NCBI GenBank assembly: GCA_964016885.1
Contig: OZ024743.1
Location: forward strand, 338,706,001-338,770,000
Source: Eledone cirrhosa
Lineage: Eukaryota
Reading direction: 5' to 3'
DNA length: 64,000 nucleotides
Below the pieces are notes generated by a model. It made no database searches and had not been told where the DNA came from. It worked only from the letters and a program-made list of their open reading frames with translations. The position numbers and the translations under genes were made by a program. How positions within the stretch are numbered: the first letter of the stretch is position 1; each line of letters begins with the position of its first letter. Of this stretch, positions 4,558 to 59,279 are shown in pieces.

Positions 4558-5528
<971 letters not shown>

Positions 5529-6043: not shown

Positions 6044-6086
6044 GCCAAAGTTCTTTCGTCACACATTCTGTGACCTCTTCAGTGAC
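6044..6086 (-). ncRNA. Minimal hammerhead ribozyme in the PLE 3' pseudo-LTR
   Basis: GUCA-CUGAAGA-G-GUCACA/UGUGAC-GAAAG-AA-CUU-UGGC. Confidence 0.85.
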
Positions 6087-8957
6087 TCGGAATTCTTTTC
6101 TTTGTTTTTGTGCCTCTCCTTTGTTCTGTCCTACGCCATCTTGTTTTTGTGTATGTGTTGTGTGCTTAGTTTGCGCATGTGTTACATCCAGGTGTCTGTG
6201 TGTGTTTATATTCGTTTATTTATTTGTTTATTTACATGTTACTGGTTGGTTGTTTGTTCTATGTGCGTGTGTGTTTTCATTTTGTCCTTAATTGTAAGTT
6301 GTGATGTTGCTGTTCCATTCATGTTTTCTATTTAATTTTGGTTGGAGTTCATTTATGTTTATTGCCTCTGTGATTTGTCTAAACATTGCGTCTTTTCTGT
6401 GTGTAGATTCTATTTTTATTTCTATGTTCTCTAATTTACCCTTATGTTCTATTTTAGCATGTTGGTAGAGTACAGATAATTCTTTACTATCTTGAAGGTC
6501 TCGCCAGTATTCATTTATCCGTTCCCCTATACTACGAGCTGTCTCGCCTATGTACACTATATTTTTATCTCTACATTGTCCTTCAGTACATCTTATGCTA
6601 TATACTACATTTCTAGTTTTACAGTTAATATGGGGGCTTAATTTACAGATTATACATTTCTTATCTATACAGGGAGGTCTTTGAAAAGGGTATGTATTGC
6701 TAATAAGTGTTTTTATGGAGGTACCTGGTCTTTCTACTATCTTAATATTGAGTTTATATTTATCTAGGGCCCTTCTAAATTTGTAAGCTAATTCACCTCT
6801 AGGGGTTGTATCGATGAACATAACATTGAATAAACTCATACCATGAGTTTATTCTATTAGCCTTATTCCTAGTTCTTTCTATTCTATTCGAAAATTTGCT
6901 CCTATACAAGGGGCAGGTCCCATTTGTGTCATTATTTACCATTTTTTCCCATTCTATATATACTCTGATTTATCTCTCTGATTGTAACCAGAGAACTGCA
7001 TACGGTGTATTAAGTGTTGTATGTGTCTCTCTAGTTCTTTGGGGTTGCACATGCGGGACACGTTTCTCATCACCCGTACCAAATCCGCAATCAGTATGTT
7101 GATTTTGGTATGGTCCGGCTGAGTTTCGCTGGATCAGATATTTGGAAGTCATGGGTTTGGCATAATGGGAATGGAGGATTTGTTTTTTGTTATTAATAGT
7201 ATCTAACCAGAGCTCTGTGTCTAGTACAGGTAATCGATGGTTGGGTAGTCTATAGTAACTCTAATACTCTGATGGATGGAGTTAGCTATTTGCTGGATGC
7301 TTTCCATTGGGTTTTTCTCTAATTCCTGACTGTTCTCTAGTTGGGGTGTTTTAACTACGATGTTTATATCATCTACGTAGCGGGAGTACATTATCAGGGT
7401 TAAGGGGTTTTCTAATTGTTCTTTAAGTTTAAGTTTAAGTCTACTGTCCCACCATACCATGAATAGGTTAGCTATGTCGCCTGCAATGCTAACACAAAAT
7501 GGCTGCTCCCTCCTCTTGGGCATATGTTTTTCCATTAAATTTGAACATATGTTCCTTAAGGGTTAATTTTATGCTGGCCCCCACCGCATGTGCAATCATT
7601 TTCTTTAGTTCATCGTGGTTTTCGGGGGTCCGTATGGCTCTCGTCCACCCGTTCCATCTATCTGTGTGGGTTTTCTTGGCCATTGAAGTAATGGTAGGTG
7701 GTCTGCCTCTTGCTGGTCTTGTAGGGCACAGTTTGCTAAGGTCATATGTATCTAGATAATTATTACTATAGGTAAGTTTAAGTAGGAGTCCCAGCTCACT
7801 GGTATCAATCCCACGGAATTCAACATTGCTCTCACTGATCATTTCTACGCATTTCTCCACAACAAAATCCACGTCAATAGATGGATACAGGGACACAACA
7901 TCCATACTACCTATTATGCAGTTTGTTAGGTCCCTAGATCGGTTACCCTCGCCGATTCTGCTGAGGAGGTCCTCCGTGCTGTCACATACATCTGGGGACA
8001 TTTCAAAGATGAGGCGTATGATCAGGGAGAGGAAGTAGGAAAGTCTGTAGTTACTAGCAATGTTAGCTCCACAGACTGGCCGTGTTGGTGGTCCTGTGAC
8101 ATGGTCACTGCTTGTTTTATGGTCTTTTCGAAGCCCATACAACGCTGGCACGTCATTGTTCCAGGCCTGGAAGTTGTTGGCAGTCCTTTTGTTGGGCTGC
8201 ATTATATTTGTCCACATCATCATATGGGCATTGAGGGCTTTTTCCCTATCCTCATGCTCTTGTGGTGTTACTTCTCTTGTGTTAGTGATGTGGGGTTGCA
8301 TTGCCTGGATGTAGTTTGGCAGACTGTCAACCGACATTCTGCCAGACTTGTCTGTTGGAAAGCATGCTATCTCTTCATTACGCGAGCGCTGCATGAGCTT
8401 ACGCAAGCCATTTTCAGATTTTTCTCCCAGTTGCTGGGCCTCCATTCCATTATGCTTCTTACTATACTGTTCTATAATATTTCTAAGTTTAGATCTAGCT
8501 ATACTAAATTGTGCTTCTGTTTGTTCATCGACCTGCGACGGCAATTGTGTAAGATAGTAAAGAATCATCTGTACTCTACCAACATGCGAAAATAGAACAT
8601 AAGAGTAAATTAGGAACATAGAAATAAAAATAGAATCTACACACAGAAAAGACGCAATGTTTAGACAAATCACAGAGGCAATAAACATAAATGAATTACA
8701 ACCAAAATTAAATAGAAAACATGAATGGAACAGCAACATCACAACTTACAATTAAGGACAAAATGAAAACACACACTCACATAGAACAAACAACCAACCA
8801 GTAACATGTAAATAAACAAATAAATAAACGAATATAAACACACACAGACACCCGGATGTAACACATGCGCAAACTAAGCACACAACACACACACAAAAAC
8901 AAGATGGCGTAGGACAGAACAAAGGAGAGGCACAAAAAACAAAGAAAATAATCCCCA

Positions 8958-11009: not shown

Positions 11010-11626
11010 GCGACATACTGGCATACGGCGTTTCTAGGGCATTTTTAAACCTGGCGGGGACCATCTCCTCTCCAGGTCTGACTACATTAGATTTCTTCCA
11101 GAGAAGGATAGAGAGTGAATGAGAGAATTGAAGTGAGAAAGAAATGTAGAGGAAAAATCGACACCAGTATTAGACTGGTACTTTTTTTTATCGACCTCGA
11201 ATGATTGCGACACAAAGTTGTCCTCAGCGGGATTTGAACTCAGAAAGCTGAAAGTCGAAACGAATACCGCTGACGTTCTAACGACTCTGCCAATTCGCCG
11301 TCTAATGAATGTTAGTATGGAATAGTAACTCCTAGTAATGTCGTGTCGGCACCTTAATGTCATACAGAGTGTCTTGGGCATTTAAAACCAGGCGGGGGGT
11401 CTATCTCATCTCCAAGTCTGAATACAGCTGATTTCTTCCAGAGGAGAAGAGAGAGTGTATTGTGTGAGATATGAAAAGGAAAAAGAGGAAGAATCAGTCC
11501 CAGTACTTGACAGGTAAATTGTTTATCAAACTCGAAAGGATGAGAAGCAAAGTTAACTTTGGTGGGATTTGAACTCAGGGCGCAGAGAGCCAGAACGAAT
11601 ACCGCAAAATATTCTATTCGTCGCCT
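11010..11626 (-). mobile_element. Two tandem SINEs, long-tail variant of the Meta-like family
   Basis: Same head and core as the 1471 copies but a different 3' tail; also at 12596-12895 (+) and 17285-17622 (-). Confidence 0.7.
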
Positions 11627-12250: not shown

Positions 12251-12269
12251 TTTAATAGAATAGTGAAAT

Positions 12270-13252
12270 AGTGGTTTCTTATATAGGCACAAGGCCAGCA
12301 ATTTTGGGGGGATGGGAAAGTCGATTAAATCGATCCCAGTGCGTACTGGTACTTTATTTTATCGACCCCGTAAGGATGAAAGGCAAAGTTAACCACGGCG
12401 GGATTTGAACTCAGATCATAAAGGGCCGTAACTCTATGCTGCAAAGCATGGCGTCCGACCCTCTACCGATACTGCCAATCCACCACCCTCAGAATAGTGA
12501 AATAGTAAAATTACTTAAAATTTCAGAAGTAACCAATAATTTATTTTAATTTAAGCACAAGGTTAGCAATTTTAGGGGTAGGTAAAGTCAGTTGTGGCGG
12601 CGAATTGGCAGAGTCGTTAGAACGTTGGGTAGAGTGCTTTGCGGTATTCGTTCCAGCTCTATACTCTCTGAGTTCAAATTCCGCCAAGATCAACTTTGCC
12701 TTTCATCCAATCAAGGTCGATAAAAAAGTACCAGTCTACTATTTGGAACCGATTCTTCCTTTAATATCTCTTTCTCACTTCCATTCTCTCACTTTCTCTC
12801 TATCCTTCTCTGGAAGAAATCTGTTGTATTCACACCTAGAGAGGAGATAAGCTCTCTGCTGGGTTTTAAAAGTGCCATAGGAACGTCGTATATCAATGTG
12901 GCGTTCCTACGACTTCATCGGGAGTCACGAGTGCATTACTGATATTATATTTCACTGACAAGGGCGGTGGTTTAGCAGTATCGGTAGAGAGTCGGATGCC
13001 ATGCTTTGCGGCATAGTTACGTCCCTTTACAGACTGACTTCAAATTCCACCGAGGTTAACTTTGCCTTTCATCCATACGGGGTCGATGAAATAAAATACC
13101 AGTAATGCACTGAATAATTGCTGGCCTTGTGCCAAAATTAGAAACAATTATATTTCAATGACATTGGAAGCGTGATTTAAACTCAGAATGTGACGAGCCA
13201 GAACAAATATCACAAAGTATTTTTCTAACGTTCTATCAACTCTGCTAATCCA
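12270..13252. mobile_element. SINE cluster: 12270-12488 (-), 12596-12895 (+), 12961-13152 (+), 13165-13252 (-)
   Basis: Same A/B boxes and core motif. Confidence 0.85.
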
Positions 13253-13574: not shown

Positions 13575-13645
<71 letters not shown>

Positions 13646-13857
13646 AATATAAGTATATATACGTACATACATATATGTATACAGACGTACAGTAGTATGT
13701 ATATATATATACATACATGCACACATATATATATGTACGTATGGATTCACCGAACATTTATTATAATGCTCGGTGTGTTTGTAAACAAACATCCAGAATT
13801 AAGCCGTACAGTGTCTAGCAACCATCGTTGCTCGTTTGTTCAACACTGACAAAGGAA

Positions 13858-13898
13858 CGCTGTACTAGTTTCAAGCTTATTAGCTATCGTCAGCAACG
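13858..13898 (-). ncRNA. Minimal type I hammerhead ribozyme
   Basis: CGUUG-CUGACGA-U-AGCU-AAUA-AGCU-U-GAAAC-UA-GUA-CAGCG. Confidence 0.85.
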
Positions 13899-14003
13899 TA
13901 TACCTTCCTGCCAGATGGTTGAACGTCTGAAAGTATATACTTTCCTTATGCATATTAACGGCTGAGCAGCCTAATTTGCATATCGAGTGAGTTAATCGAT
14001 ATA

Positions 14004-14044
14004 CCTTGCTGACGATAGCCAATAAGCTTGAAACTAGTACAGCG
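14004..14044 (+). ncRNA. Minimal type I hammerhead ribozyme
   Basis: CUGACGA at 14009, GAAAC-UA-GUA at 14030-14039. Confidence 0.8.
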
Positions 14045-14436
14045 TTCCTTTGTCAGTGTTGAACAAATGAGCAACGATGGTTGCTAGACACTGTACGGCT
14101 TAATTCGGGATGTTTGTTTACAAACACACCGAGCATTATAATAAATGTTCGGTGAATCCATACGTACATATATATATATATATGTGCATGTATGTATATA
14201 TATATACATACTACTGTACGTCTGTATACATATATGTGTGTACGTATACATACTTATATTTAAGTAACAGCCGTACTAAGAGTGAGAAATGAAATTTCGT
14301 TTCATTTTTTCCGTTTATCGTTTTCGGTACCCCAGCCGATTAACTCACTCGATATGCAAATTAGGCTGCTCAGCCGTTAATATGCATAAGGAAAGTATAT
14401 ACTTTCAGACGTTCAACCATCTGGCAGGAAGGTATA

Positions 14437-14477
14437 CGTTGCTGACGATAGCTAATAAGCTTGAAACTAGTACAGTG
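14437..14477 (+). ncRNA. Minimal type I hammerhead ribozyme
   Basis: CUGACGA at 14442, GAAAC-UA-GUA at 14463-14472, stem I CGUUG/CAGUG. Confidence 0.85.
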
Positions 14478-14683
14478 TTCCTTTGTCAGTGTTGAACAAA
14501 TGAGCAACGATGGTTGCTAGACACTGTACGGCTTAATTCGGGATGTTTGTTTACAAACACACCGAGCATTATAATAAATGTTCGGTGAATCCATACGTAC
14601 ATATATATATATGTGCATGTATGTATATATATATATACATACTACTGTACGTCTATATACATATATGTATGTACGTGTACATA

Positions 14684-14731
<48 letters not shown>

Positions 14732-15198: not shown

Positions 15199-15499
15199 TA
15201 TATATATATGCACACACACACTCGCACATAAACTGAAATATATAATCAACACCCAAACCACTAACACATAGCTATATACACAGGCATACGACATCAGTAT
15301 TATCCCGTAGACAGACTTTATCGAGTTATATTGCAACAAACAATTCAATGTGTATAGAACGTGTTTAGAACGTATTTAGAAGAACAGCAGAATGTCAAAA
15401 TAACAAGATAATAGAAAGTTGCAGATTAACAGAATAGGAGTAGAGCAAAAATAGTAAAATTTACTGAAATTTCAGAAATGCAGACATATCAGAGATATG

Positions 15500-16217
15500 G
15501 GAGAGGGAAAAATCGATAAAATCGACTCCAGTGTGTTACTGATACTTCATTTTATCGACTCCATAAGGATGAAAGGCAAAGCTTAACAAATATAATAATG
15601 ATTTCTACTATAGGCACAAGGCCAGCAATTCTGTGGGGAGGGGAAAGTCGACCCCCAGTGCGTGACTGGTACTTTATTTTATCGACCCCGTAAGGATGAA
15701 AGGCAAAGCTAACCTCAGCAGGATTTGAACTCAGAACGTAAAGGGTTGTAACTCTATGCCACAAAGCATGTGGTTTATGATTTAGGCACAGGGCCAGCGA
15801 TACTGGTGGATGGGCAAGTCGATTAAATCTACCCCAGTGCGTTACTAGTACTTAATTTTATCGACCCCGTAAGGATGAAAGGCAAATTTGACATCAGCGA
15901 GATTAGAACTCAGAACGTAACGAGCCAATCCACCACCCTAGACATAACAGAGATAATAGGATGATCGAATGACGATGTGACGATGTGATGATGAGTATAT
16001 AATTATCATTTATTTATTTTAAATGCGGTGGATTGGCAGTATCGGTAGAGGGTCGGAAGCCATGCTCTGCAACATAGAGGTATGGCCCTTTACGGCCTGC
16101 GTTCAAATCCTGCCGAAGTTACCTTTGTCTTTCATCCTTACGGGGTCGATAAAATAAAGTACCAGTAATGCACTGGGGTAGTTGCTGGCCTTGTGCCAAC
16201 AGTAGAAACAATTATTA
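15500..16217. mobile_element. SINE cluster: three minus-strand partial copies at 15500-15940 and a full + copy at 16024-16217
   Basis: Meta-like core and tRNA head. Confidence 0.85.
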
Positions 16218-21325: not shown

Positions 21326-21386
21326 AAGTAATTACGTCGGAAAGGTCCAGGAAAAAAGAGTGCTCTATGTGAATTACAGAGCTTAT

Positions 21387-21639
21387 TAGTTATGTAATAA
21401 ACAACATAAGATAATTATTTCATTTACCAGTGGTTTCTTGAAAGCAACCAAAATTGCTTTCATTCATCAGAATGAAAAAATCCTGGTGGCTTTATTGACA
21501 GTGGATTTGAAAAAAACAAATCCACTGTCAATAAAGATACCAGGATTTTTTCATTCTGATGAATGAAAGCAATTTTGGTTGCTTTCAAGAAACCACTGGT
21601 AAATGAAATAATTATCTTATGTTGTTTATTACATAACTA
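21387..21639. repeat. Near-perfect 253-bp hairpin (arms ~123 bp, 7-nt A loop)
   Basis: Direct reverse-complement match. Confidence 0.95.
21549..21608 (+). ncRNA. Canonical type I hammerhead ribozyme (mirror copy on - at about 21418-21477)
   Basis: UUUCAUU-CUGAUGA-A-UGAAAGCAA/UUGCUUUCA-A-GAAACC-ACU-GGUA-AAUGAAA. Confidence 0.9.
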
Positions 21640-22051
21640 TATATAGAGAGAATTCATTCGCCTGATATAGGGGTTGCCTCCCTTGCCGATCCCCACGTGG
21701 GGTCAGCAATAGTCAGTCATTGTATTAACATTGAACTAAAACCTGTTGAGAAAGTGGCTTCCTTGTTCAATCATCTTACCAGAAGCCTGACATTATTTAT
21801 GTAAGCGGACGGTACTTGATTTAGGAGCCGCAGAAACCCATATACTGGATTTTACCAACCTTCCAGGGGTCCGGGTAAATTTTCAATACCCGAATTACTT
21901 GATCGCTTTTTTTGGCTATGCGAATGATTGTTTTGCCTTTAACGTTTGTTATAGCTCTGGTTCATCTGAATCATTGAGCACTTGCCACACATCTCGGAGG
22001 TTGTTTTTCGTTATTTCGTGGGCCGAAATGCGAATCTCGATAATTTATGTT

Positions 22052-24762: not shown

Positions 24763-26143
24763 TGTTTCTTTTATTTGCCACCAGGGCATCAAAAGTGGGA
24801 CAAGTACAATGGGGGGAGTTTACAAAACAAGGCGTCCTCAATAAGGAGGAGGCAATAACAATATATAAAAATAAAATAAAATATAACAAAAAATAAAATT
24901 TATAACAAAGTCCTCAATAGAGAGGAGGCGCCTTGGGGGGTCGCACACACCCCCGAAAAAAGTGTGCAACCCTTCTCCTCCGGAGCACAGAGAAGGGGTG
25001 CTCTCTTGGTCTTTCATCTTCCTCACCTATAGTCTGATGTAGAGTGAAGGCCCATTCACACGGGCCATTCTCGCCACTTTCACCCATCTTTCATAGAGAC
25101 GGCTGGGGTGCAGCACCTCTCTCTCCATCCTGATCCTTCTTCCGAAATGATATCGGAAGAAACGGACCAGTTGTTGGCCAGAGAGAAAGGTGTCTGACCT
25201 CAGTCCTTTCAGACGCGTCCACCATACAACATCTTTCGCCATGGCTATTACGCACAGAAACACCGCCTCTCCTTCGTTTTTGAAGAGGGGAGGCGGCTTG
25301 ATCGTTACAATAGACTCGGTGGTCAACCGGATCGGTCCCACCCTTGACAGCAGTTGTTCGACATAGCCCCACAGATCGGCAATGCCCGAGCAGTGTACCA
25401 GTGCGTGTGCAACGGTTTCCTCGTCGCACACGCATCTGGGACAGATCTTTTTCGATGGGTCCCTACCCGGGCGCCCGTGTCTGTAGAGCCTTTCTCGAAC
25501 GGGCAGAGCCCTTCTGTAGCATTGCCAGGCCAGGGACCTCTGGAAGTTATCCATGGGTCCCGGGCTGAATGTCCTACCGAACAGGTTGGCCAGTTCGTCT
25601 TCCTCCATGCCTAGGGCTTCTCCGAGGGCGTCGTCGCACCTGCTAACTACCAGCCCTCTATAGAATGACGAGGTGGATTCTCCACTGACAGCCGGGTCCG
25701 CATGCCAGAGAGCCGTGAGCGCCTGGGCACACTCGGTGTGCCAGGCGCCCAGTTTTCTCGGTCTTTGCTTGACCCAGGATTGCAGCTCGGTGAGTGAGAC
25801 GAGTCTGGGAAAGGCTCGCCTCACAAACGGGGCCCACACCGGTTGACCGGAGAGGAATACCTGAAGGTGCCGTAGCCTTAATGCGTGTTTACGTATCATT
25901 AGCCACGGCATCCCCAGCCCTCCTTTCGAAGGGTGTTGACAGCAGATGGATCTCCTCACCATAGGAGCCCGCTTCTTCCAAAGGAATTGGAAGAGTGCGC
26001 GCTCCATTTTGGCGAGCGTTTCCCTTGGGCAAGGCACAACGGTCAGGCGGTAGTAGATGACGGACGCTATATAAGTGTTCGCCACCTCCGCCCGACCTTT
26101 CAGGGACAGTTTGCACTCGGCCCACTTCTGGGTCAGTGCAAAC
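24763..26143 (-). mobile_element. 5'-truncated L1/Tx1-like LINE (post-RT region and CCHC zinc finger) with a ~20-bp TSD
   Basis: 372-aa ORF with LSLKGRA..N, FLW, KGGLG and CPRC..EETVAHALVHC; flanking direct repeat aaccagttgatagatagata. Confidence 0.85.
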
Positions 26144-26277
26144 AACCAGTTGATAGATAGATAGATAGATAGATAGATAGAGAGATCTTGGAGGCCTTAA
26201 AAATGTAGTCGGCTATTCGGTTGATTGTATCAACAGGAATACTTGTCGCTGTAACCGACGAAATTCCACTACTCCTA

Positions 26278-32196: not shown

Positions 32197-35100
32197 CATC
32201 ATCATCATCATCATCAGGTTTAGCGTCCGTGTTCCACGCTTGCATGGGTTTGGACGGGGGTTTTCCCACTTGAGGCAAGAGTGGTTGTCTTGCTCGCATA
32301 GGACTGTCTGGCGGGTTTTCTACAGTTGGATGCCCTTCCTAACACCAACCACATTTACAGTGTGGGGCTGGGAGGTTTTTACCGTGTTGCCTACACGGCC
32401 ACATTACAGCGTGGACTGTCTGGCGGGTTTTCTACAGCTGGATGCCCTTCCTAACACCAACCACATTTACAGTGTGGGGCTGGGAGGTTTTTACCGTGTT
32501 GCCTACACGGCCACATTTACAGCGTGGACTGTGTGTTTTTTGTCGTGACACCTACACGATCTCATTTGTTTCGGCCTGGATGTTGTGGGACCAACATAAC
32601 TTTACATTGAAAGGGGCGGTGTGGGTGGGGTGGAGGTGGTGGGACGGGGGTGTGTTTTGATAGAGATGCCTACTGACTGTAGTAGGTTTTTACTTTGTAT
32701 TTAGGTAAGGCGGGTCTTCTCTATTACTGAGTACCGCCAAAGGTCTCGGTCCAGTGACATTGTCTTGGAGAGGTGTAAGCGTGTGAGGTCGGAATTTATC
32801 AGCTCGTCCCATGTTTTTCTGGGTCTGCCTACTCCGTGGCTACCGTCTATCTTTATTGCCCTGCACTTTGTTATACAGCTGTCGTCTTTCATGCGCATCA
32901 CGTGACCGTACCAACGTAGCCTTCTCTCGAGTAGACAACATCTGATCCCTCTTATTTCTAATTTTTTCCTTAGTTCGTTTATGCTTTGCCGTTCACGTAT
33001 ATTACTATTGCACATCCAGCGGAGCATGCAAGCTTCGTTCCTCTCTAGTCTGCGTATATCCTCTGCACACAATGCCCAGTGCTCACTGCCATGCAGCATT
33101 GCTGTTCGTATGCAGGCATCGTATAACCTGCCTTTCATTTTTAGGGAGAACCCTCTAGCGGCTAATAGTGGTATAAGCTCTCTGAACTTTTTCCATCCAG
33201 TTCTGACTCTAGCTACTGTACTTTCAGAGCACCCTCCCCCACTGCTGATGTTGTCACCCAGATAACGGAAGCTGTCCACTATTTCTATAGAACCCTCTGC
33301 GCAGTTGAAGGAGCTAGTATTTTGTGGGCACTTGCTGCTACTTATTGCACCAGAGCACCGGCCACATGTAAAATCTATGTTCTTAGTTAGCTTACCTGTG
33401 ATCCCACTACATCTTTTATGCACCCATACTTTGCATTTGGGACATAAAATGGAGTTTCTACCTACGCCTTTCCTACACACTGAGCATGGCCATTTCCCAG
33501 ATGGGACCGCCGCCTTATTTTCTTTCCTACAAACTAGAACTTTAGTCTTAGCCAGGTTAATTTTAAGGCCTTTTGATTCTAGGCCGTGCTTCCATGTTTG
33601 GAATTTCTTCTCTATTTCGGTCATTGATTCAGCTATGAGCGTTAGATCATCTGCGTATAGGAGTTCCCATGGGCAGCCGGTCTTGAACTCCTCTGTTATA
33701 TCCTGAAGGGCAATAATAAATAGTAGGGGGCTAAGAACAGAGCCCTGATGGACACCAACTTTTACGCTAAACTCTTCACTATATTCGTTGTTAATTCTAA
33801 CCTTACTGACTGTTTCTTTATACATGGCTTGTATAGCTCTCACAAGCCATTCGTCAACACCTAGTTTTCTAAGAGACCACCAGATAATGGAACGGGGGAC
33901 TCTGTCGAAGGCTTTCTCCAAGTCGACGAAAGCTAAGTATAGGGGTTTACTTTTAGCTAGGTACTTCTCCTGTAGTTGTCGTACAATGAAAAGAGCGTCT
34001 GTGGTACTTTTGCCTGACACAAACCCGAACTGCATTTCATCTAGATCAATTCTCTCTCTGATTAGTTGCGCTATTACTTTTTCCGTGACCTTCATGACCT
34101 GGTCGATTAATTTAATGCCACTATAGTTAGTCCTATCTAGGGCATCTCCTTTTCCCTTATAGCAGTTAACGATGATGCTGCTACGCCATTCCTTCGGAAC
34201 AACCCCATTCTGTACGACTTGGTTAACTATCCGGGTGACCATGGTGTGTCCCACCGAACCAGATGCCTTTATCATCTCAGCAACTATTTCCGAAGGCCCA
34301 GCCGCCTTACCCGTCTTCATATCTTTGATTGCCTTACTTATTATACTACCATCAACTAACACTGCTGGTCCCTCTATTGGATCGATCTGGGGGAGACTGT
34401 CTTTCTCCCATTTGTTCTCCTCATTTAGAAGCCTTTCGTAGTGACACTTCCAAGCTACCTTCTTATCAGCGTCGGTGATGGCAAGTATGCCATCATCGTT
34501 AAGTACACACTTCTCCCCGACAATATCACGGTTTTCCTTGACACATTGCCTGGCAATCCTGAACACCTCACGTTTTTGGTCCTCACGTTGTAGAACATGC
34601 TTGAACTTTCTTTCCTCTGCTTCCCTTCTTGCGAAGTACACTTGTCTCCTAGCTTCCCTCCTGGCCACTTGATAGTCTTCTTTACTTCCCCCATCCCGCC
34701 ATACTTTCCAAGCCTGCTTTTTGGCCTTAATTGACTCCTTCACCTTACTGTTCCACCACCATGTTACTCTCCTCCTACCTACAGGCCTGCTCCAGCCACA
34801 GACTTCGTCTGCCGCCGTCAGCAGGTTTGCTCTCAGGAATTCCCACTGTTCCTCTATATTATACGACTCTAATTGCTCTTCCTTACTGTCGAAAGCGTCA
34901 AGTAATATGCTTTGGAATTTATTTCTGGCTATGGGGTCCTTTAGCTTCCATATTTTTCTCCTGAGGATAGTCCTCTTCCGCTGTCTAGTACGTCTCGTCC
35001 TGACTATGAGGTCGCTAATTATCAGTCTATGTTGGGAGGTGAATTCTTCATGGGGTGGGATTTAGTGTTAACAACAGACACTCTGTCACGTCTTCTGGTA

Positions 35101-35838
35101 AGGATATAATCTACCTGGCTTGTGTGTTCCCCCGATCTATAGGTGATCAAGTGATTGTCTCGTTTTTTGAAGTTAGTGTTACAGATAGTTAAGTTATTTG
35201 CGTCGCAGAATTCCAGGATTCTGGAGCCTTCCTCATTTCTAGTACCGAACCCATAGCCTCCATGGATTCCGTCATAGCCGTCACAATGTTGTCCAACGTG
35301 ACCATTTAGGTCGCCTGCAATAACTATATAGTCACTGTCGGTTATTTGGGAGGTAGCGAGCATCAGTGTCTCGTAGAATCTGTCTTTTATAGCGCCGGGC
35401 AGTCCGGATTGGGGTGCGTACGCAGATATTACTGTCACCGTAGTTTTATTGAGGACAAGTCTTATTTTAATTATTCTGTCGTTCACTCTATTTACGTCTA
35501 TTATCTTATCTGCCCACTTTTCTGCTACCATGATTCCTACCCCACCCAACCCATTGTCATTTCCCACCCAGAAAAGCTTATAGCATCGTTCTTTACCCAC
35601 GATGAATCTAGCCGACCCTCCCCTCCACCCGGTCTCTTGAATACAACAAACATCGACCTCCTTACGTTCAAGCATTTCTACAACCTCGTTAGAGCGACCC
35701 TTTAAGGTGCCTACATTCATGGTACCAACTCTGAAGTTTTGGATTGCGTTTGGAGGGTGGGAGCGGTGGGGAGCGGTGGGGGATGGGGTTATGTTAGCCA
35801 TCCTGGGCCGAAACAAGGAGGAGTGCTTGCATTCTCGT

Positions 35839-35840
<2 letters not shown>
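32196..35840 (-). mobile_element. Near full-length RTE-clade LINE with a (GAT)n 3' tail, inserted in TA-rich microsatellite
   Basis: APE domain then RT; 3' UTR with the ggatgcccttcc motif and a ~112-bp tandem duplication (32301-32525). Confidence 0.95.
32701..35816 (-). CDS. RTE endonuclease/reverse transcriptase, ~1040 aa if one frameshift near 35053 is corrected
   Basis: NVGTL, IQET, SAYAPQ, GDLN, DYIL, SQHR (APE); [25 protein letters not shown] (RT); Cys/His finger CSVC..CPKC..HKRC..CGRC. Confidence 0.9.
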
Positions 35841-35931
<91 letters not shown>

Positions 35932-35933
<2 letters not shown>

Positions 35934-38330
35934 GGATTAAAATACTGGAGCGTGTTGGAGTTAAACACCCTCTTCGTATTATAGAAATATAATATCCTCT
36001 CTACATACTACTAGTCTGAACAGATCTGGAAATGCCTTACCACCAGAACAGACTTTAACTAATAGCAATCCTACGTGTAATGCATCACCACTTCAGCCAA
36101 CCAATAGCACCCGGAAGTGTAACTGTAGAGTGAGTGCTAACTGCCCTTTAAACGGTAACTGCCTCTCTAAGAACATCGTCTATGCTTGCGTAGTTATAAC
36201 TAATTCCTCTAATAGAACTTATGTAGGCTCTACATCTAACACTTTTAAGACTAGGTTTAATTCTCATATTTCTAATTTCAAACATGTTAAGTTTAAGAAT
36301 TCTACTTCTTTAGCACACTATATCTGGGATCTTAAGGGGGCTAATATACCATATAGCCTTAATTGGCGTTTAGTAGCACGCTCTAATAACCTTTCTATAC
36401 ATACTAAATTTTGCAATCTCTGTATCCTCGAGACACACTCTATAATTTTCTCTAGCGAATCCTTACTTAATAGAAAGTCTGAGATATTCTCTTCTTGCCC
36501 CCACGCTATTTCTAATTCTTACTTTTATTATAAACCTAAAGGTTCTAGTAGTTTAAATTGTATCCATTAGCTGATATATTCTATTACTTATTTTTTAGTT
36601 TAGGTTCTTTTTGTTTACCACCATTATTATCATCATTATTATCATTAGTTTTTGACAACTCTTTATTCTAGCTCTCATAATCTTTTGGCTACTATACCAT
36701 ATCTATCTTCTTACGCATTAAATTTTCACTATTAACAACTTATGAGTATATATCTGATTATATATTTTACATTATTTTATTTTATTTCATTTTATTTTAT
36801 TTTATTTTATTTGGTTTCTTCATTGGATACCCCATGCGCACATAAACTTATTGTCAACCCCTTCACATAGATTATGATTATATTTAATCCCCCCTCTTTT
36901 ACGCTCCTTTCTATTATTTAATATAGTATCTTGACAATATTTTTATGCTCCTTTGTATCCTCCATACATTTCTTTTTTTTCTGTCCCTATTAGCCTACCA
37001 TAATTCTGCTTAAGTCAGTTTTTTTTATATCGTTATGTAAATGATAGTAGAAAATTTTCATCCCTTTATATATATATTTGTAGGGAAATATTAACGTTTA
37101 TATATTTTGATTACTTAAACCATAGCTAATATTGTATTGCCTTATTGGATATTTTAAATATTTTTAATATTAATTTATCAAATAGGGTTTTCGAGTCATT
37201 TACCTGGGTTGTTTCCTAAGTTTTCACTTAACTGCATGTGAGACCTAACTATATACTTTTGTTTTTGTTTTTTAATTTCCGGTTGATTCTATTTATTTAT
37301 TTATTTATTAATACTACTGTGCATTCTATTTACTGTCTGGCCCTTACTCACTCATCCACATATATGTCTGTTTACCAACCTTGTAATTATAAGTAATCAT
37401 ATATTATATTATGTTAATTATTTTATATTGTATTTGTTATTGTACTATCGATCCTTATTACTTACCGTTGATTATATATAACATTATGATATTTTAAATT
37501 TTATATATCATGTAAGAAGTTTATATTTTTGTACCATCATAATTTTGGGCAGTGTACAATTTATATTTTTTCTCACCTACTCTGTAACTCTATATGAATT
37601 GATTTGTTATTATATATTATATATTATATATGTTATTATATTATTATTATAGTATTATTGTGACATCTATAATGTTTGTGTAAATTAACCGGAGATTATC
37701 TATTATTATATTATATTATATGGTATATAATTGTATAGTTTATTATATATTATATGTGCTACTTATAATCATATCATATTATTACCTAATTGTATATTAG
37801 ATATATGTATTATTACTATTATTATTATTTTTATTCCTATCATGCTTATTTATATTTAAACTCTTAATAAGGTTTAATTTGTGCTGTTAAAGATGGATAT
37901 GTGTATTGATGTATGTGTATGTGTGCGTACGTGTGCGTACATATATATATATATATATTGTACCTTTTAATTTTTATTGTAATTTTAATATTGTTACATG
38001 TATACTATATTATATTATATAGTATTATATATAATTCCCGCTCTATATAACTACCTTTGTTTAGCTCTAGGTTTTTTTGCTTTGGACTATATTTGTAATA
38101 TGGTTCTAAATGTTATACACCTCCTTAGTGATTTTTATTATATATTTTTACCCATAATCTTGCAATACTTTAGTGTATGTACACTCCATATTCTTCGGAG
38201 TTTTCGGCTTGTATAGGCCGATAATACTTCTTGTTGTTTTAATTGCCCTGATGAGTCCTTAATAGGACGAAACATTGTTGGCTAATAAAGACTTTTGATG
38301 TATTGAAGGCTTCTTTGTTTTACTTTCATA
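35932..38330 (+). mobile_element. 5'-truncated PLE (Hydra-like): GIY-YIG domain 36115-36570, long AT-rich 3' UTR, terminal hammerhead
   Basis: CNCRVSANCPLNGNCLSKNIVY..TYVGST..FKTRF..H..CNLCILE; both ends in (TA)n. Confidence 0.85.
38241..38287 (+). ncRNA. Canonical-core minimal hammerhead ribozyme
   Basis: GCC-CUGAUGA-GUCCU-UAAU-AGGAC-GAAAC-AUU-GUU-GGC, followed by AAUAAA. Confidence 0.9.
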
Positions 38331-39728: not shown

Positions 39729-42700
39729 TGTGTACCGACAACATGTGTACCGACAACACACACATACACACACATATACACATACATGCACATATATGAG
39801 CTCACCTACACATACAGTCAGATTTACCCATATACATATATGTAGACGTACACATACACACACATACATACACATACATATATACACACACATACACATA
39901 TGCATACACATACACATACATATATATACAGATATATATATACACACACATAGACATATGTATACACATGTATTCACATACACACACACACACATACAGA
40001 TAAATTTGCGTACACGCACGCACACTTAAAACGCCCGTATGAGTAAAATACTTACACACAGACACACACACTATTGTTGGTTGCGGAGTGGAGGTATGTT
40101 TTGTCGGTGCTGATGAAGTATGGAGTTGTGTTTTGTGGTGGTGGTGGTGGAGTTGTGCTGGACAAAATATATATATACCGGATAGAATACCAGTTAAAAG
40201 GTGACAGGGAACGCGGGGGGGAAGCGTTTATGTACGTACGGCGATGTGTGTTGTGGACATGATGATGGTGGGGTGATGCTGGGGTGATATATTCGGCAAG
40301 ATGATTACATGATCAGAGGTTACGGTGTGTTATATGGTAGGCAAACGGGGGGTGGGGGGTATATAATACAGTCGATTTGGGAGCGAGGGATGATATGTGT
40401 TGATGATGTAATGATAATGATTGTTGAAGTATGTGGATGTATTTAGTGGTGGCGGTGGTTGTGTGTGCGTGCGACAGTACAGTTACAGGGTCGAATTTAG
40501 CGTGGGGTTGCAAGTTAGGGTAGATAGGGGGAACATGGGGGGATGAGGATGTAGGCGTGTATGGTATGCATATGACGATGTGTGGTGTGGTGGTGGTGGC
40601 GATGGTGTGATGTGATCGACATTGTATTTACAAGGTCCCTTGTCATTGTGAATTGCAAGGTAGAACGTATCATATGGTACCGATTTAATACGATTTTGCA
40701 ACTATGAGGTGTGTATGTTGATGTGAATTTTGGTGGTGGTGATGGTGATGTGTGCGGCATGATATACAAATGGGGGCTTAGAGATGGTAACATGGAGTAC
40801 AATACAATAAGTTCATTGAGGTGGGCGATGTTGAGACGGGGTAAAGGTGGTTGTTAATATGGTGTGTCATGGTTAGTGTGATTTTTGGTGTGGATTATGT
40901 ATGCGGCATGATATACAAAATACGGGCTTACATATGGTTAAATTCAATGAAATGAAATAAGATAAAGTGAAGTTAGATTAGAATTAAAGTTCGTTGAGAT
41001 GGGCGATGGTGATACGGGGCAGGTGTGGTTATTATTATGGTGGGTCATGGTTAGTGCGTGGTCTTCCCGCGAAAGTTTGTGCAGAAAAGGTGTGCATCCT
41101 AGTGTGTCTGCAATTGACAATTATGTCCGACCTATAGTTTATGGCGGAATCAAGTTTAATTATTTCCGCCGCTTCAGCTAGGCACAATCTGCGGTGGTTT
41201 CTGTCACTGGGGATGTATGTCACACGTCTTTTTACTGACCACGAGATCCGGGGTTCAATATTCCTGTCCTTGAGGTCCCAGATCAGATCGGCCAGTTTTG
41301 TTTGGGGTCGTTTCGATCTATGTTTGAAGGAGCTTCTGTGGTTATACCAGCGCTCCTTAAACGTAGTAGATGTCGCACCTATATATGAGTACTCCTTATT
41401 GCCGGCAGTGACATCGCACCGGTAAACAATATTCTTAACGAGGCACTCCCCGTTTAGTGGGCATTCGTCTCGTTTTTTGCAGTTGCGTTTGGGAGTAACC
41501 GGTGCGGTGTAACGTTGGCGGTTGGTGTCGTGCGGTGTTGGTGTGGTGTGTGTGTTGTTGTGTTGTGTTGTGTGTGTGGTTTCGTTCTGGGTTGTGGTGG
41601 TGGTTTGTTGGGGGGAAACCATGTGTTTTCGTATTTTTGCCCTATTATTGTGTGCTATTGTGTGGCCTAGGTTTGGTGCTGTGGAGAAAGAGAATTTTAC
41701 TGTGTGTTTATTGAAGAGCTTGTGGTATTTGTGTGTGTGTGGAAAAGATTGTTCGAGGGCCCTGAAAAAGGTTCCCGGTATGTTAGTGGCGACGTGTATA
41801 GAATAGGGGGGGGGGGGTTATACCACGTGACAGGTCTACTTCGGTTTATGCGTTGTTTAGTGAGTTTGTGTGTGTTTTGGTCAGGCGTCTGTTTCAAATA
41901 GGTTCCAGGTAATCTATTGGCGTTATGTTCCTTGTCTCTATTGGTACGCAAACGTGTGCGATAGTCGGAGTTGTTATTGGGGATGGAGAGTATGGCTTTA
42001 TCTCCTAGACAGTTATGTGTGGTGCTGTCTACGCTGCCGGCTAGGGGGCGTCTAAGGTTATTGTGTGTCCTATGTGTTGAGGTTTCTTCTAAGTTCGTTT
42101 CTAAGGGTCCTGCTATGTTTAGCTGTGTTGCGGTTCTATTAGGGTTGATGTAAGTAATCTTCTCAGTGTAACCAGCGTTTATAAGTGCGGAGTCATAGTA
42201 TTCCGCGTGCTGCTTGAAGATGTTTTCGTTGGCCGACAGTGTGGACACTCTGTTGGAGACACTTTTAACTGTAGAGTTAATTATGCTCTTATGGTGGTTG
42301 GAGTGTCTATTGACGTATCTAATATTTTCATTAGGTTTGTGGTATGGACGGTAGAGGCCTGAGTCTAATTCTAGGGTGACGTCTAAGAAGTTAACTGTCC
42401 TATTGTTGGGTTCAATTTCTACTGCTAAACCTTGGTTCTTAAAGATGTACCTAAGTCGTTTGTGTATTCTATTCAGTTGGCTGTTATTGAGTCCACGGGT
42501 CATTAGTAGGGCATCATCCCGGTATAATCCACCGCCCAAGGAGGGGATCTCGTCCGTTAATATGTTTAGGAGGTATATGCCTACTACATCTGTAACCTGT
42601 GCCGAGTCAGTCGATCCCATGGTGATGTCGAAGCTATCTGGTCTATTCTGTCGTTCCCAAAGTCTACCGTCGAATTCTAGTAAAGTTTTCCTAGCTGTTA

Positions 42701-43541
42701 TTATTATGTCTACTTCTCTTCTAGTGAGGCTTGATCTGTTCATGGCTGAGATCAGTGCCTTGTTAAGGATGATTGGGGATATAGATGCGTAGTAGTTCGT
42801 AATGTCCAATTGGACTAATCGAACATTCGACTTAGTTTCAATGGCACAAAACGAGTCTATTACCTCCTTTGTACAAGACCATAGGCTGAGTTTAGTTCTA
42901 ATCTTAAGTTCAGGTAATATTCGGTCAATGATTGATTTGCTAAGTCTACCAAGGTCCGATTTGAAGGGGGCTATGAGCCTGACCGGTAGTTTTGACTGGA
43001 AGTCCGGTTTATAGTCTTTAATGGATATTCTCGGTGTCCTAGGGTTGTAAGGAAAGGTCCTGTCGTCAATACTCAGTTCGGTCATTATTGATTTCGCCTG
43101 TTTATTTGTGTGTGCTAGGTTTTCTCGTGTTGATGTTTTGTATATTTGACGTTTGTAATGCATTTGTTGTAGGTTTTGTACTCTAAGTTATATAGGTTTC
43201 CAGTTTTATCCGCTGGTACAATAATCCCAGTGCTATTCTTGATCCTTTTTAAGGTAGAGGCGAGTCCGGACAGGAATGCACTTCTGTCAGGGTTTCGCGG
43301 TGGTTTCCTGAATCTAATTTTCCGATTCATGGTAATGATCCTGCTCTCAAATTCCTCAAGGAGTGGGTTGTGCGGTGGGTTTTTCGTGTGTATATATGTA
43401 TGTGTATGTATGTGTGTGTATGTGTACGTCTACATATATGTATATGGGTAAATCTGACTGTATGTGTAGGTGAGCTCATATATGTGCATGTATGTGTATA
43501 TGTGCGTGTATGTGTGTGTTGTCGGTACACATGTGTGTGTG

Positions 43542-48504: not shown

Positions 48505-51500
48505 ATTATTCAGTGATTTTTACATACTTGACCTCCTTTTCAACACAAGAGACATATAGAAACATATGTATATATTGACCCACAGTGGGTTGACATCCAT
48601 TATAATAATATAGCATGGTAATTTACATACAAAGATTACAGTCATATTAAAGGACAAAATTAAAATTAAAATAAAACATTGGCAGTCTACTAAGATAAAG
48701 CAAAAGGAAAGTTTGGAATAGCCAGTGTATGCAACAGTCACACGTGTGGCATGCACGCGTGTCCTATTTATACAAGATTATAGTGCGGCAGATTGTTACA
48801 AGTAAAACAAGCAGTCAAAGCAGGCAAGAGCATCATGGGGGTGAACTGGTTAAGCATTATTTACACACACCTGTACGATATAGAAGCCCGTGTGTGGAGA
48901 AACACCAAAAATATCAAAAATATTACAAATGAGAAGCAAAACAGCACCACTGTCCTCGTACACACCACCACTCTCACAATCCAGGAAACGCAATTTATAG
49001 ACTACATGCCCATCTCACAATCCACGATGATTCAACATTGGGTGCCTGGTGAACCATGCTAGAACATCACAGCTTGTCGTTCTTTAATTCGATTCATAGA
49101 TCAGGTTGTTTTTGTTGTGAGAGATGACATCGTATTATATTCCGGAAGTGTGTGAGTGATTAAGGGGAGTTAATGCGTAAGGGGATGTAACTAGCTGATT
49201 TCTATAGTTAAATTTATTATCCTAAAGTACATTAATGGTGTCTCAAATGAGTTCCCATCATATAAGGTTATAAACAATTTCTAAATTTAAGTATCTTATC
49301 TATAAATTACAGTGTAGTCTATCGAGAAGTACTAAAGGTGTTCATATTAGGATGAATACCTTTTATCATAGAGTGCCCCCACCGAACATTCCACATGAAG
49401 AGTCAGATCTCCAAATCAATGATCTTTGTAAGTGTAGTCCACCCACAGGACCTGGCAGGGTCTTATTAGAATCACTTCTATATATGACTCCTGGTAAGTT
49501 CTGGGTCATTGCATGACTGATTGCATGGCAAAGTTAAATATCACTAGGGTAGTCCAGAGATCAATTCTCACTCACAAAGACACTGATCTGTCCATCAAGT
49601 CATACATGTATTTATAACTCATACATCACCTGTACATAATTCATTGCACTCAGCATATAGATTATATAGCTCTTTTATGTTAATAAATTAATTACTTAAT
49701 CTTCCATTTATTCAATGATGGCACTACATACACAGGACAATGTTAGCACAACCAATTCCTTGCTTACAGTTTACATTGGTGTAATGTAGTCTAAGCAATT
49801 GAAGGCCAATATACCAAAAGTAGAAGTACATGAGGATATCTCCAAGGTAAAAGGTACCAGGAGGATGTCACTATTTGCGCTAAAGAGGATTAATGGGTGT
49901 GGAGATGAGGTGTAAAGTGTGCCCCTGATGATTGCTGCTAGAAGCGGTGACGGGTTCAAGTCTGACATTGTTATATATTGGGTTCAAAGTTTTGGAAGGA
50001 GTGTCGGAAGCGGTGTTGGCAAGACGCGAACACTTCTGATTTTTTATTAAGGAGGTTATGGTTTGAGAAGATGATAGTATGGGTTTCTAGTAGACAGAGG
50101 TTACAAAATGTATTAGGTGGTTTGTACGATGACGCGTTACCTATCACTTCCCATTTAAGTGTATATGGTTTATTTTTAGTTTTTAGATAGTGTATGTAGC
50201 TAGATAGAGAAGTGGAGTTGGCTAGACTGTGTTTTTTGAAAGAGTGGAGGTGCGAATTGTATCTGGTTTTGAAGCAGTTTGAAGTAGAGCCTATATAGGT
50301 TTCAGAAGAGTTGCTAGTTCTGACTGTGCATGAGTATATGATATCCTTGGTTAAGCATTTTTTATCTAAAGGGCAGGTTCTATTTGATCTACAGTTACAA
50401 TTATTCTGGGTGTTAGTCTGCCGGTTATTATGTTGTGTAGAAGTCTGGATGGTAGCTATGGGGTTATGGTTATGTGGGTTGACGTTCCCAGCGTTATTGT
50501 TTACACTAGTGTTATTACTATTATTTCTATTGATATTAGGGTTAGTTGCTATCATGTTATTTTGAAGGTTTATCGTCTGTTGTGATTTAGTTTGCTGGAA
50601 GTAAGAATTAATTTTTCTTTTATTCTTACTAGCTATGTGGTATGCTATGTTAGGCGTGGTAGAGTGGGAGATTTTAATAGTGTTTTTGTTTAAAAGGCTA
50701 TGGTACTTATGGCCGGATGGGAAGTTTTTATCTAGTAGTGAGAAGAAAGCCCTAGGTAGGTTGGTAGAGACGTTTAGATTGAAAGGAGGGTTGAAAAATG
50801 TATTATTTGTTCTTCTATTTTTGTTTTTTACGTCTGGTGAGTTGTTTCCTTTTATGGTACTATGGTAATTTCTGTGGTGTGGGTTATTTTTGTTTGCATC
50901 TTCCGTATTAGTGTGTGTGTGGTTGCTATTCCTATTACTAAATTTCCTCATGGTCATGTTGTGCGAAATAATGTTGTAGCTATGTGTTTTTGTAGGTAGG
51001 AACTAGATCTCTATATTATGGCCTGATCTAGCTAATGCCTGATTATAATATTGCGAGTTTTTGCTAAATATGTTTACGTCATAGGATAGATTAGAGATTC
51101 TATTAGATACTCCCTTAGAGATAGAGTTTAATATAGATCTAGGGTGGTTAGACTTGGTATCTACGTAAATGAGTTTTTCATTAGGTTTGTGGAAAGGTGC
51201 ATATATCTTTGAGTCTAGGTAGAGGGTGGCGTCCAGGAAGTTAACGTTTTTAGTGTTTTTGTCCATGGTAATACTAAGGTTATAGTTTTTGAATGTCTTG
51301 TGCAATAGTTTTCTAGTTCTTTCTATATTGAATTTTTTATAATCTATAAGTAGAAGTGCATCATCGTGGTACACACCACCGTTGAGATATGGAAGGTCCT
51401 TATGGATTTCGTTAAGTAAATATAGGCCGACTAAATCAGTGACCTGCGCCGAGTCACTAGATCCATCCTTTTGCTTTATCTTAGTAGACTGCCAATGTTT

Positions 51501-51670
51501 TATTTTAATTTTAATTTTGTCCTTTAATATGACTGTAATCTTTGTATGTAAATTACCATGCTATATTATTATAATGGATGTCAACCCACTGTGGGTCAAT
51601 ATATACATATGTTTCTATATGTCTCTTGTGTTGAAAAGGAGGTCAAGTATGTTAAAAATCACTAAATAAT

Positions 51671-52022: not shown

Positions 52023-54624
52023 GCTATTGTTTCCTCCCGTTACATTGTATTTTGTATTTTCTACGCCATCTTTATTTAGTCTGTTTATATATTTATTTAT
52101 TGGTTTATTTTATTTTGTCTTCTTTGCGCATGCGTTTGCGTGTGTGTATAGTGTTTTGTTTGATGTGTGTTCGTGATTGGGTGACTGTGTATTGGTTAAT
52201 GTATTCTATCTTTACTAGTGTGTGTTTATATGTGTTTGTTGTTATTGTGCTTGTGTATGTATTTATTTATCTATTTATTTATTTATTTATACTTCTCTAA
52301 GGTCAGTGTTCTTTGTTTGGGTGTGGTTGTTATTCCATTCATTCTTTCTGTTTAGCCTTGGCCTTCTAATTTCTATTTCACTGGCCTCTCTGATTTGCCT
52401 ATCTGCTGGGTCATTTCTATGTTTAGATATTATTCTAATTTCTATGTTGTCTATGTTACCGCCGTGTTGTTGTCTGGCATGTTCGTATAGTACTGACCCG
52501 TTTTTTTGTCCTTTTAGTTCCCCCTAGTGTTGGTCTATCCTTTCACCTATGCTACGAGCTGTCTCGCCTATGTATGTTGTTGTCATGTTTCTGCAGGTAC
52601 CTTCTGTACATCTTATGCTATAGACTACGTTTCTAGTTTTACAGTTTATCCGGAGGTTTACCTTACATATGATACATTTCCTATTAGTACAATGGGTTTT
52701 CCTAAAAGGGTAGGTTTTGCTGATCAGGGATTTTATGGTGGTTTCTGGCTTTTCTACCACCTTAATCTCTAAGTGGGTCTTTCTCAGGGCCTTTCTACAC
52801 TGGTTAGCTAATTTCCCTCCAGGGGTAGCGTCCACAAACATGACACTCTGGTATCTCTGGTTGTCGTACCATGAGGTGGCTTTCCCTATCTTATGTCTAG
52901 CCCTATCTAATCTACTCCATGATTTGCTCCTGTATAATGGGGAAATTCCTTTCATGTCCAGTTCTATGAGGGTCTTATACTTCTCTATGGCTCCTTCGTA
53001 TACACTGATTCTGTCTCTTTGGTTGTAGCCAGAGAACTGCATGCGGTTGATGAAGTGTTGGATGTGTCTTTCCATTTCTGTTGGGTCGCACATGCGGGAC
53101 ACATTCTTCATTACTCGTTCCAAATCTGCGATCAGAATATTAAACTTAGCACTACTGGACATTGCTGAGTTTTTGAGTATCAGGTATTTGAAGGCCATGG
53201 GTTTAGCATAGTGTGAGTGGAGAAGTTGGGCTCTCTCGTCTATAGTGTTAATCCAGAGTTCCGTGTCTAATACAGGTAGTCTATTGTTAGGGTGTTTGGA
53301 AGGGTAGTTGATAGTTATAGTTATACTCTGGTGTATGGAATTAGCTATCTGCTGGATGCTTTCTATTGTGCTACGTTCTAAATCAAACTTGTTAGTGCTC
53401 TCTAGTGGGGATGTTCTTATAACTATATTGATATCGTCTACGTAACGAGAGTACATGATGAGGTCTATGGAACTCTCATTAAGGAGATCTTTAAGTCTCC
53501 TTTCCCACCATACCATAAAAAGGTTGGCAACATCACCAGCTATGCTGACGCCAATGGCTGCTCCCTCATTTTGGGTGTAGATCTTCTCGTTGAACTTGAA
53601 TATGTGGCCCTTTAGGGTAGTTTTGATACTAGCCCCTATTGCATGTGCGACCATTTTTCTTACCTGATCATTGTTTTGGGGCGTCCGTATAGCTTTGGTC
53701 CACCCAATCCACCTTCCCATGGGAGTCTTTTTAGCCATTGAGATTATGGTGGGGGGGGGGGTCTACCTCTTATGGGTCTACTAGGGCAGAAACGTCTAAG
53801 GTCATGGCTGTCTAGGTAGAAAGGAAAATAGAATATTCTCAAAAATACCCAGATAACATCAACAATATACGTATGACTGATGTAAAACTACCGGAAGAAT
53901 TTACCAATGACCACACAATAAATATTTATGGGAACACTTTAATCAGTGAACAAGAACAACAAATCCTGCAGCTACCACCAAAATTTGCCATCTACAAAAA
54001 GATTAACCCTATTGAGTGCAAAACGTAGCTGGAAAAGTGTTTCACAAAAATACGTTGGAAAGCAAAAGTAAACAACAACAACAACAACAATAATAATAAC
54101 GGTAGTAGTAATATAAACAATAACTCTGAGTATAGAAATAACAGCTATAATAGTAATAGTCATAACAATAACAATAGCAGGAGAGTGAGAAATAGTAATA
54201 ATGGTAATAATACAAACGATAGACAGAACAACCACAACAACCACAATAATAATAATAATAGAAACATTAACTACAGACACAGCAGCAGCGACCACAGTAG
54301 TAATAACGGTAACAATACGAACAACAACAACAACAACAACAACCACAGTGGTAATAATGGAAATAATACATGTAGCAACATTAATGATAGACACAACAAA
54401 AACAAGAAACATAATAAAAGTAACAACCACAATGGTAGAAATAACAGTAACAACAACAATAACAGTGAAGTAAACAACAATCACAGCAGCAACAATACAT
54501 CTAGCAATCATAACAATAATAATAATGCTAATGATAGGAACAACAACAACCACGATAATAACAATAATAGAAACACACACAACTATGACGATAGATATAA
54601 TGACAACCCCTTAGAGAAACTATT

Positions 54625-58849: not shown

Positions 58850-59234
58850 CATATATATACACATATATATATACATATATATATATACATATATACATAT
58901 ATAGACATATATATATATATATACATACTTCCTCCCGTTTGACCTGCGCGGAGTTCCTTCCTTGCTCACATTTCGACTAGGTTTGATGGTCTTTATTCTC
59001 TCTCGTTCACGATTTCACCGAACTTATATTCATGGAAATCTGGGACTTGACTCTTTCCTCCTCACTTTTCGTTGCTTTACCATCTTTGTTTGTTTACACT
59101 CTCGCTCTTTCCCCTTATTTACGTGTCCCAACGATTTTCTTTAGCCGTTGCTCGCACCAACCGGAGGTATATGGTCTTTAAAGCGATGAAATACCAATAA
59201 AGGTTGGAAGATCAATGATGAAGGACTAACTTTA

Positions 59235-59279
<45 letters not shown>

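Follow-up and report, generated by a model that had tools for sequence, protein, structure and literature searches.

A non-coding 433-nt hammerhead repeat in Eledone cirrhosa, probably an animal retrozyme inserted by a Penelope-like enzyme

Layout of the locus and its surroundings

The window analysed here, a 64,000-nt stretch of contig OZ024743.1 of Eledone cirrhosa, contains three pieces of one repeat set between two (AT)n tracts. Positions within the repeat are numbered such that unit position 1 is window position 14260. In window coordinates the parts are:

13589..13643: left (AT)n target tract
13644..13998, minus strand: inverted arm A, 5'-truncated, unit 78-431 plus 3 nt (13647-13998 is unit 78-431)
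13863..13893, minus strand: hammerhead core of arm A, stems intact, predicted cleavage after 13863
13999..13999: head-to-head junction read from the sequence, 1 base outside both arms, between unit 78 (left) and unit 174 (right)
14000..14259, plus strand: copy B, 5'-truncated, unit 174-431, first of the partial tandem
14009..14039, plus strand: hammerhead core of B, predicted cleavage after 14039, probably impaired
14260..14692, plus strand: copy C, the full 433-nt non-coding unit (1-433), 36% GC, with a predicted branched fold
14260..14318, plus strand: 59-nt "tail" segment with a hairpin, part of copy C
14411..14497, plus strand: complete type I hammerhead of C, predicted cleavage after 14472
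14411-14432 with 14480-14497, plus strand: outer stem I of C
14436-14441 with 14473-14478, plus strand: stem I of C, 6 bp, extended past an internal loop
14442-14472, plus strand: core of C, with a 4-bp stem II that has U.U at its base and a palindromic stem III
14593..14692, plus strand: long TA-rich hairpin, whose end is the first fixed 3' end (unit 431-433)
14693..14725: right (AT)n target tract

An earlier note on this DNA had described one reverse and two forward near-identical copies, and this is confirmed: in the non-repetitive part, arm A differs from copy C at 3 of 254 positions, B from C at 3 of 158 and A from B at 4 of 158. The 433-nt tandem that it reported holds for copy C, a full unit, whereas B covers only unit 174-431 and arm A only unit 78-431. 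The 3' end of arm A abuts the left (AT)n tract and the TA-rich hairpin end of copy C is joined to the right one, so that both arms have the TA end outermost and neither has a tail, a combination found in at most 1 of 34 pairs elsewhere. Unit 59, the end of the tail, is internal in copy C and is the second fixed 3' end in copies of the family elsewhere. Because both flanks are (AT)n, a target-site duplication is not delimitable at the locus. The longest ATG-started open reading frame on either strand of 14000-14692 has 68 codons, in agreement with the earlier description of the module as non-coding, and ARAGORN called no tRNA genes in the 64-kb window.

That the inversion is a chimeric-read or assembly artefact is barely credible. 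The region does sit among simple repeats. In four read sets the family is very deep and the 13998/14000 junction is almost uncovered, but these sets come from other samples, two of them of reduced representation, and carry no weight on the question of an artefact or of an empty site. Against an artefact, the arms begin at different unit positions and are not identical (3-4 differences), and the same layout recurs with other breakpoints at 32 of 60 loci, with the two end sites used asymmetrically. The unit was found at 80-100% in four further read sets, with the same stem I variant pair present.

Other elements are scattered through the window. Dispersed SINE-like repeats surround the locus in both orientations (11134-11280, 12267-12508, 12964-13112 and 15498-16181), and a repeat of ~230 nt is present twice (5199-5425 and 58997-59236), each time adjoining (AT)n tracts. 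LINE-type coding fragments, assigned to a family by reading translations, lie on the minus strand at 25027-26196 and 32701-35936 and include an RT-like frame of 786 codons. Broken Penelope-like coding fragments are seen at 6288-8745, 41035-43187, 49971-51560 and 52524-53762 (minus strand) and at 55796-57552 (plus strand); they were assigned mostly by reading translations, with Pfam matching only one of them, weakly. A hammerhead-like motif accompanies the first of these, near 6050-6095 (minus strand). A GIY-YIG fragment at 35965-38330 (Pfam E 2.5e-4), with a CxCx5C linker like that of the Hydra clade, is followed by an AT-rich stretch and then by a hammerhead-like core (38248-38279) just ahead of (TA)n. 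A fold-back element at 21370-21640, with one hammerhead-like core per arm (21425-21470, minus; 21556-21601, plus), is probably a stump-sized insertion of another Penelope-like family.

The hammerhead and its conservation

The stem III palindrome ACUAGU to which the earlier note drew attention is found in all three copies, and the predicted cleavage sites that it placed at 14039 and 14472, 433 nt apart, are borne out by the core matches. Within the window Rfam gave no match at gathering threshold; in E-value mode Hammerhead_HH9 scored 13.1 bits (E 8.8), among 102 weak matches which are mostly (AT)-rich microRNA-like noise. With Rfam unsupportive, the case for a hammerhead is made by the core motif, by the pairing of the stems and by covariation. 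The exact 31-nt core, used as a query against the 3.0-Gb assembly, gave 5,527 + 5,046 = 10,573 matches and its reversed control none, and the motif is therefore not a product of chance.

Conserved pairing of the stems is seen in an alignment of 51 copies (48 distinct), in which the rows were picked by subfamily across the subfamilies and which consists of 53 references minus 4 (copies with indels among them) plus two window copies. Hammerhead stem cells are paired in 96% of cases in the 48 distinct rows, compared with 30-42% in slid controls. Covariation within the family amounts to two pairs with two-sided change, essentially one pair, and 313 of 500 shuffles were as high; the outer pair 170-224 is disrupted in 15 of the 48 rows. 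At the stem I pair 180-216, U.G accounts for 147, A-U for 22 and G.U for 9 of the 190 younger stretches, and in an older subfamily 39 of 42 have G.U; some loci enter these counts twice. The unit is best described as hammerhead-bearing, with self-cleavage predicted.

The motif is supported more strongly by a sister non-coding family of 466 nt (L193:2028-2493; also L162, L101, L138 and L211-L218), which is identical to the 433-nt unit at 263 of 475 aligned columns (55%). It has kept the invariant core and the same stem III, with several stem I and II pairs changed on both sides, and the base of its stem II is a canonical G-C. Since the hammerhead stems are compensated across families only 55% identical, cleavage has likely been under selection in this non-coding lineage. 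The predicted hairpins of the sister family follow a similar order, and of its 21 arms (12 non-redundant loci) 18 end at the two homologous sites. A third tandem hammerhead family, with units of ~308 nt ending on (AT)n (L149:1-480; L178:90-700), was observed as well; its stem II has a basal U.U, and its stem III is a palindrome other than ACUAGU.

The predicted fold of the monomer is highly paired (circular minimum free energy -143.5 kcal/mol, 70% paired), with a z of -11 against 60 shuffles and of -7.2 for the non-repeat part, without the TA tract. Dimeric folding between tandem copies, which had been proposed from the palindrome, is plausible in so far as the palindrome is of a kind reported as dimer-active (PMC4209133, PMC7229834; dimeric hammerhead cleavage is summarised in PMC6765202). 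A B-C dimer is doubtful at this locus, where B is truncated and mutated: its outer stem I is absent, and changes at 14005 and 14020 each break a pair, in stem I and stem II respectively. The ACUAGU stem III duplex between B and C, when enforced in secondary-structure folding, costs 2.8 kcal/mol relative to the free fold. Read-through of 13700-14640 on the plus strand is predicted to give a near-perfect hairpin (-648 kcal/mol, 88% paired) in which the core of C is sequestered. With hammerhead B damaged and core C predicted to be locked in a hairpin with arm A, the 13644-14692 locus is probably inactive for release of the monomer 14040-14472.

The repeat family and the search for an autonomous partner

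The idea of a distinctive three-hammerhead module was not upheld, the locus being one of thousands of insertions. The family has a high copy number dispersed over many contigs, with units of ~420-450 nt repeated head to tail in arrays with no coding spacer; the longest arrays have at least 8 stretches (L057), and no LTR-like organisation was seen in the unit arrays. A 20-mer of the tail gave 9,799 matches genome-wide. The layout was scored in the first 60 distinct loci among the 100 core matches listed, all of them on contig C1 and chosen for an intact core alone. Two fixed 3' ends on (AT)n are evident among the 104 arms of these loci: 44 end at the tail (unit 46-60, mostly 59) and 34 at the TA-hairpin end, 9 end within the TA tract and 17 elsewhere, and 70 of the 78 canonical ends run into (AT)n within 12 nt. 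The tail and TA end sites are about 59 nt apart. Head-to-head inverted pairs are present in at least 32 of the 60 loci, and the number may be higher since short inverted stretches of the TA tract did not enter the scoring; 17 of 34 such pairs combine one tail end with one TA end. The likeness to a Penelope-like (PLE) insertion put forward in the earlier note is thereby substantiated: the standard layout of these elements is a partial tandem, an inverted copy and a one-sided tail (Craig et al., 10.1101/2021.04.23.441226), and the window locus has the partial tandem and the inverted 5'-truncated copy, with the one-end tail found at the level of the family.

Arms of one locus resemble each other more than arms of different loci. 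Mean divergence within a locus is 4.4% for tandem and 4.8% for inverted arms versus 8.0% between loci, and 48-50% of non-majority bases are common to the arms of one locus versus 17% between loci. The window arms are 1.2-2.5% apart, which places the locus among the younger insertions, in line with the recent event claimed before, although gene conversion between arms could lower the figure too.

If the repeat were satellite-like and owed its spread and its inversions to recombination at the DNA level between (AT)n tracts, with the hammerhead incidental, this would account for the simple repeats that make up the flanks and part of the unit, and for the local duplication in some arrays (L145). 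Yet the fixed 3' ends, scattered 5' ends, one-sided tails, presence on many contigs and compensated stems argue for a structured RNA that was reverse transcribed, and we consider such a satellite very improbable.

The earlier note had suggested a search for an autonomous partner sharing the 3' end. The genome was searched by a Pfam GIY-YIG scan (30 loci of 150 scored, from 10,595 candidates), in 20 long-frame loci, by two protein searches (30 loci each of 150 scored), by a variant-hammerhead pattern (9 matches, control 1) and by a two-family nhmmer profile. The searches returned nothing beyond neighbouring insertions of the family and two weak matches (L115 and L100; E about 5e-5 to 8e-5). No sequence shared with the unit was found among 119 PLE-type loci (110 by PLE protein, 9 by the variant hammerhead pattern), which are only part of the PLE families of the genome, and no foreign extension is common to 112 flanks from 140 family loci. 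These flanks share only inverted bits of the TA tract of the unit and one 39-nt (AT)-rich match. We therefore take the unit to be a free-standing non-coding family. The pieces could otherwise be the 5'-truncated ends (pseudo-LTRs) of an autonomous Penelope-like element, and their layout is indeed identical to that of truncated autonomous copies. However, the flanks show no such element, the units stand head to tail without a coding spacer, and in each of the 4 cases inspected (AT)n, flank DNA or orientation sets a copy near a PLE gene apart from that gene; the chance that the pieces are pseudo-LTRs seems to us very small.

RT plus GIY-YIG elements are plentiful in the genome, some of them with long open frames, and they include a young PLE family with frames up to 905 codons. 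Several have 3' ends on (AT)n and hammerhead-like motifs, one of which has the same design of U.U and palindromic stem III as the 433-nt unit. The long-frame Penelope-like elements (905, 938 and 1096 codons; G000:C5:12579810, C5:12754943, L091 and L093) are candidate mobilising enzymes.

Insertion, template and comparison with known systems

Overall, we interpret the locus as one insertion of an abundant 433-nt non-coding animal non-LTR retrozyme, likely mobilised in trans by a Penelope-like RT/GIY-YIG protein, and we assign this reading a probability of about 0.82. Tandem copies would be transcribed, and the hammerheads would cut out monomers, probably aided by palindromic stem III pairing between neighbours, which a host ligase might then close into circles. 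In this scheme an (AT)n tract would be nicked on both strands by a borrowed endonuclease. The exposed 3' ends could each start reverse transcription at unit 431-433+3 or at unit 59, through 2-5 nt of AU complementarity. Synthesis would continue around the circle and beyond the cleavage site, so that partial tandems arise, and two truncated cDNAs primed from opposite (AT)n strands would be joined head to head at their 5' ends. Self-priming has been proposed for inverted junctions (PMC3846280), but the unrelated starts of the two arms (unit 78 and unit 174) fit better with two primings. Use of two internal start sites has been found in vitro for a Penelope-like enzyme, explaining the tail (Frangieh et al. 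2024, PMC11167929).

The 5' ends bear on the nature of the template. From 137 loci (13 duplicates dropped), 118 freely sampled 5'-truncated stretches were obtained, and their 5' ends are scattered and extend past the cleavage site, 71 of the 118 being upstream of it. None falls at unit 210-218, the cleavage site, where 3.6 are expected if uniform, and 3 fall at unit 206-220, where 6.0 are expected. A linear monomer cut at both ends was considered as template and rejected, as it cannot yield the 71 of 118 stretches which cross the cleavage site. The lack of truncations at the site makes a circle or an uncleaved multimer the likely template, and the data fit both equally. A cluster of 5' ends at unit 170-187, just upstream of the core and including copy B (174), was noticed post hoc (15 of 118, 7.2 expected, P 0.006), with other clusters at 111-130 and 251-310.

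The choice between these two templates is about evenly balanced, and we have chosen the circle. Supposing that a borrowed Penelope-like enzyme is at work, there is only slightly less than an even chance that its template was a multimeric transcript of tandem master arrays that stayed uncleaved, in which case the hammerhead would act at a different step and circles would not be intermediates. Ribozyme mutants insert normally in vitro, unprocessed RNA being the main substrate, and no RNA-seq reads ended at the site (PMC11167929); these results weaken the circle step. The long genomic arrays could serve as masters, and the array L145 has heterogeneous units, in identical pairs that are 4.7% apart, for which a single pass round one circle is no explanation. 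On the other side, the compensated stems across families 55% identical indicate that cleavage was likely selected, and circles are the main RNA form for the coral, mussel and axolotl retrozymes (PMC7229834). It is tempting to speculate that the two families, which share a circle-wide fold and two start sites, were inserted by rolling reverse transcription of a ribozyme-made circle, with both-strand (AT)n priming, by a PLE enzyme with which they share structure without sequence. We hold this fuller proposal tentatively, at rather less than an even chance. If true, genomic data would directly attest the proposed step from circle to genome in animal retrozymes, and the RNA elements that a Penelope-like enzyme reads would be identified.

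The locus itself is ordinary; the repeat family is sizeable, with at least 10,000 hammerhead cores, and contributes to the shape of (AT)n tracts in the genome. That PLEs mobilise animal retrozymes has been argued mainly from co-occurrence and pLTR homology (PMC7229834; 10.64898/2026.07.22.740005), and in the 433-nt family Penelope signatures are countable over thousands of young copies, with the diverged sister family marking conserved structures and end sites. The family offers ready substrates for questions of trans-mobilisation and of circle versus multimer. Among the papers listed on octopus hammerheads and cephalopod retrozymes, titles and abstract openings describe no such family, though repeat libraries may already include it; the word "ribozyme" is absent from the main text of an octopus repeat annotation (PMC13282606), the supplements of which may hold the repeat.

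With the EN+ Penelope-like elements (PMC3846280; 10.1101/2021.04.23.441226; PMC11167929) the family shares the partial tandem, the inverted 5'-truncated copy and the optional one-end tail, as well as two internal start sites and AT-rich or (TA)n targets, the latter known from some PLE clades (10.1101/2021.04.23.441226). In contrast to an autonomous PLE, the unit encodes neither RT nor GIY-YIG. Tail length is 59 nt in the 433-nt family and 72 in the sister family, compared with 30-40 in Penelope-like elements, and the start sites are AU-rich with short complementarity to the target, whereas those of the anole element are AC-rich and not homologous to the cut DNA (PMC11167929). Non-autonomous elements of the Chlamys clade, such as MRC1, differ from the unit in that they generally share 3' sequence with autonomous families, and the clade is reported to be without hammerheads (10.1101/2021.04.23.441226), of which the 433-nt unit has one. 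This hammerhead is of the canonical metazoan type I design (6-bp helix I, 4-bp helix II, 1-2-bp helix III and a small palindromic loop) and not the minimal PLE type; opposite-strand hammerhead pairs 100-700 bp apart have already been noted (all PMC4209133).

The closest likeness is to the metazoan non-LTR retrozymes (PMC7229834; 10.64898/2026.07.22.740005). The family shares with them non-coding tandem units of a few hundred bases with GC < 50%, one type I hammerhead per unit, a monomer predicted to be self-paired, thousands of copies and the presence of PLEs. Two consecutive complete hammerheads in units of 150-450 bp are found in the family, and in part at the window locus, where B is truncated and mutated. 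The U.U at the base of helix II is shared with axolotl HHR_Amex2, the dimer of which cleaves better (PMC7229834). Cleavage and circles have been shown for some metazoan retrozyme families (PMC7229834), whereas the hammerhead described here is predicted from sequence; also unlike the published retrozymes, the 433-nt unit gave no pLTR homology. Inverted arms, two fixed 3' ends and (AT)n targeting are features of the present family beyond those described in the available text of the two papers. Li, Clavereau and Pollet 2026 (10.64898/2026.07.22.740005) regard animal retrozymes as non-autonomous PLE derivatives and leave the mechanism open. The 433-nt family adds a new member to these known non-LTR retrozymes of animals (non-autonomous Penelope-like elements), and the traces of insertion are unusually clear in it.
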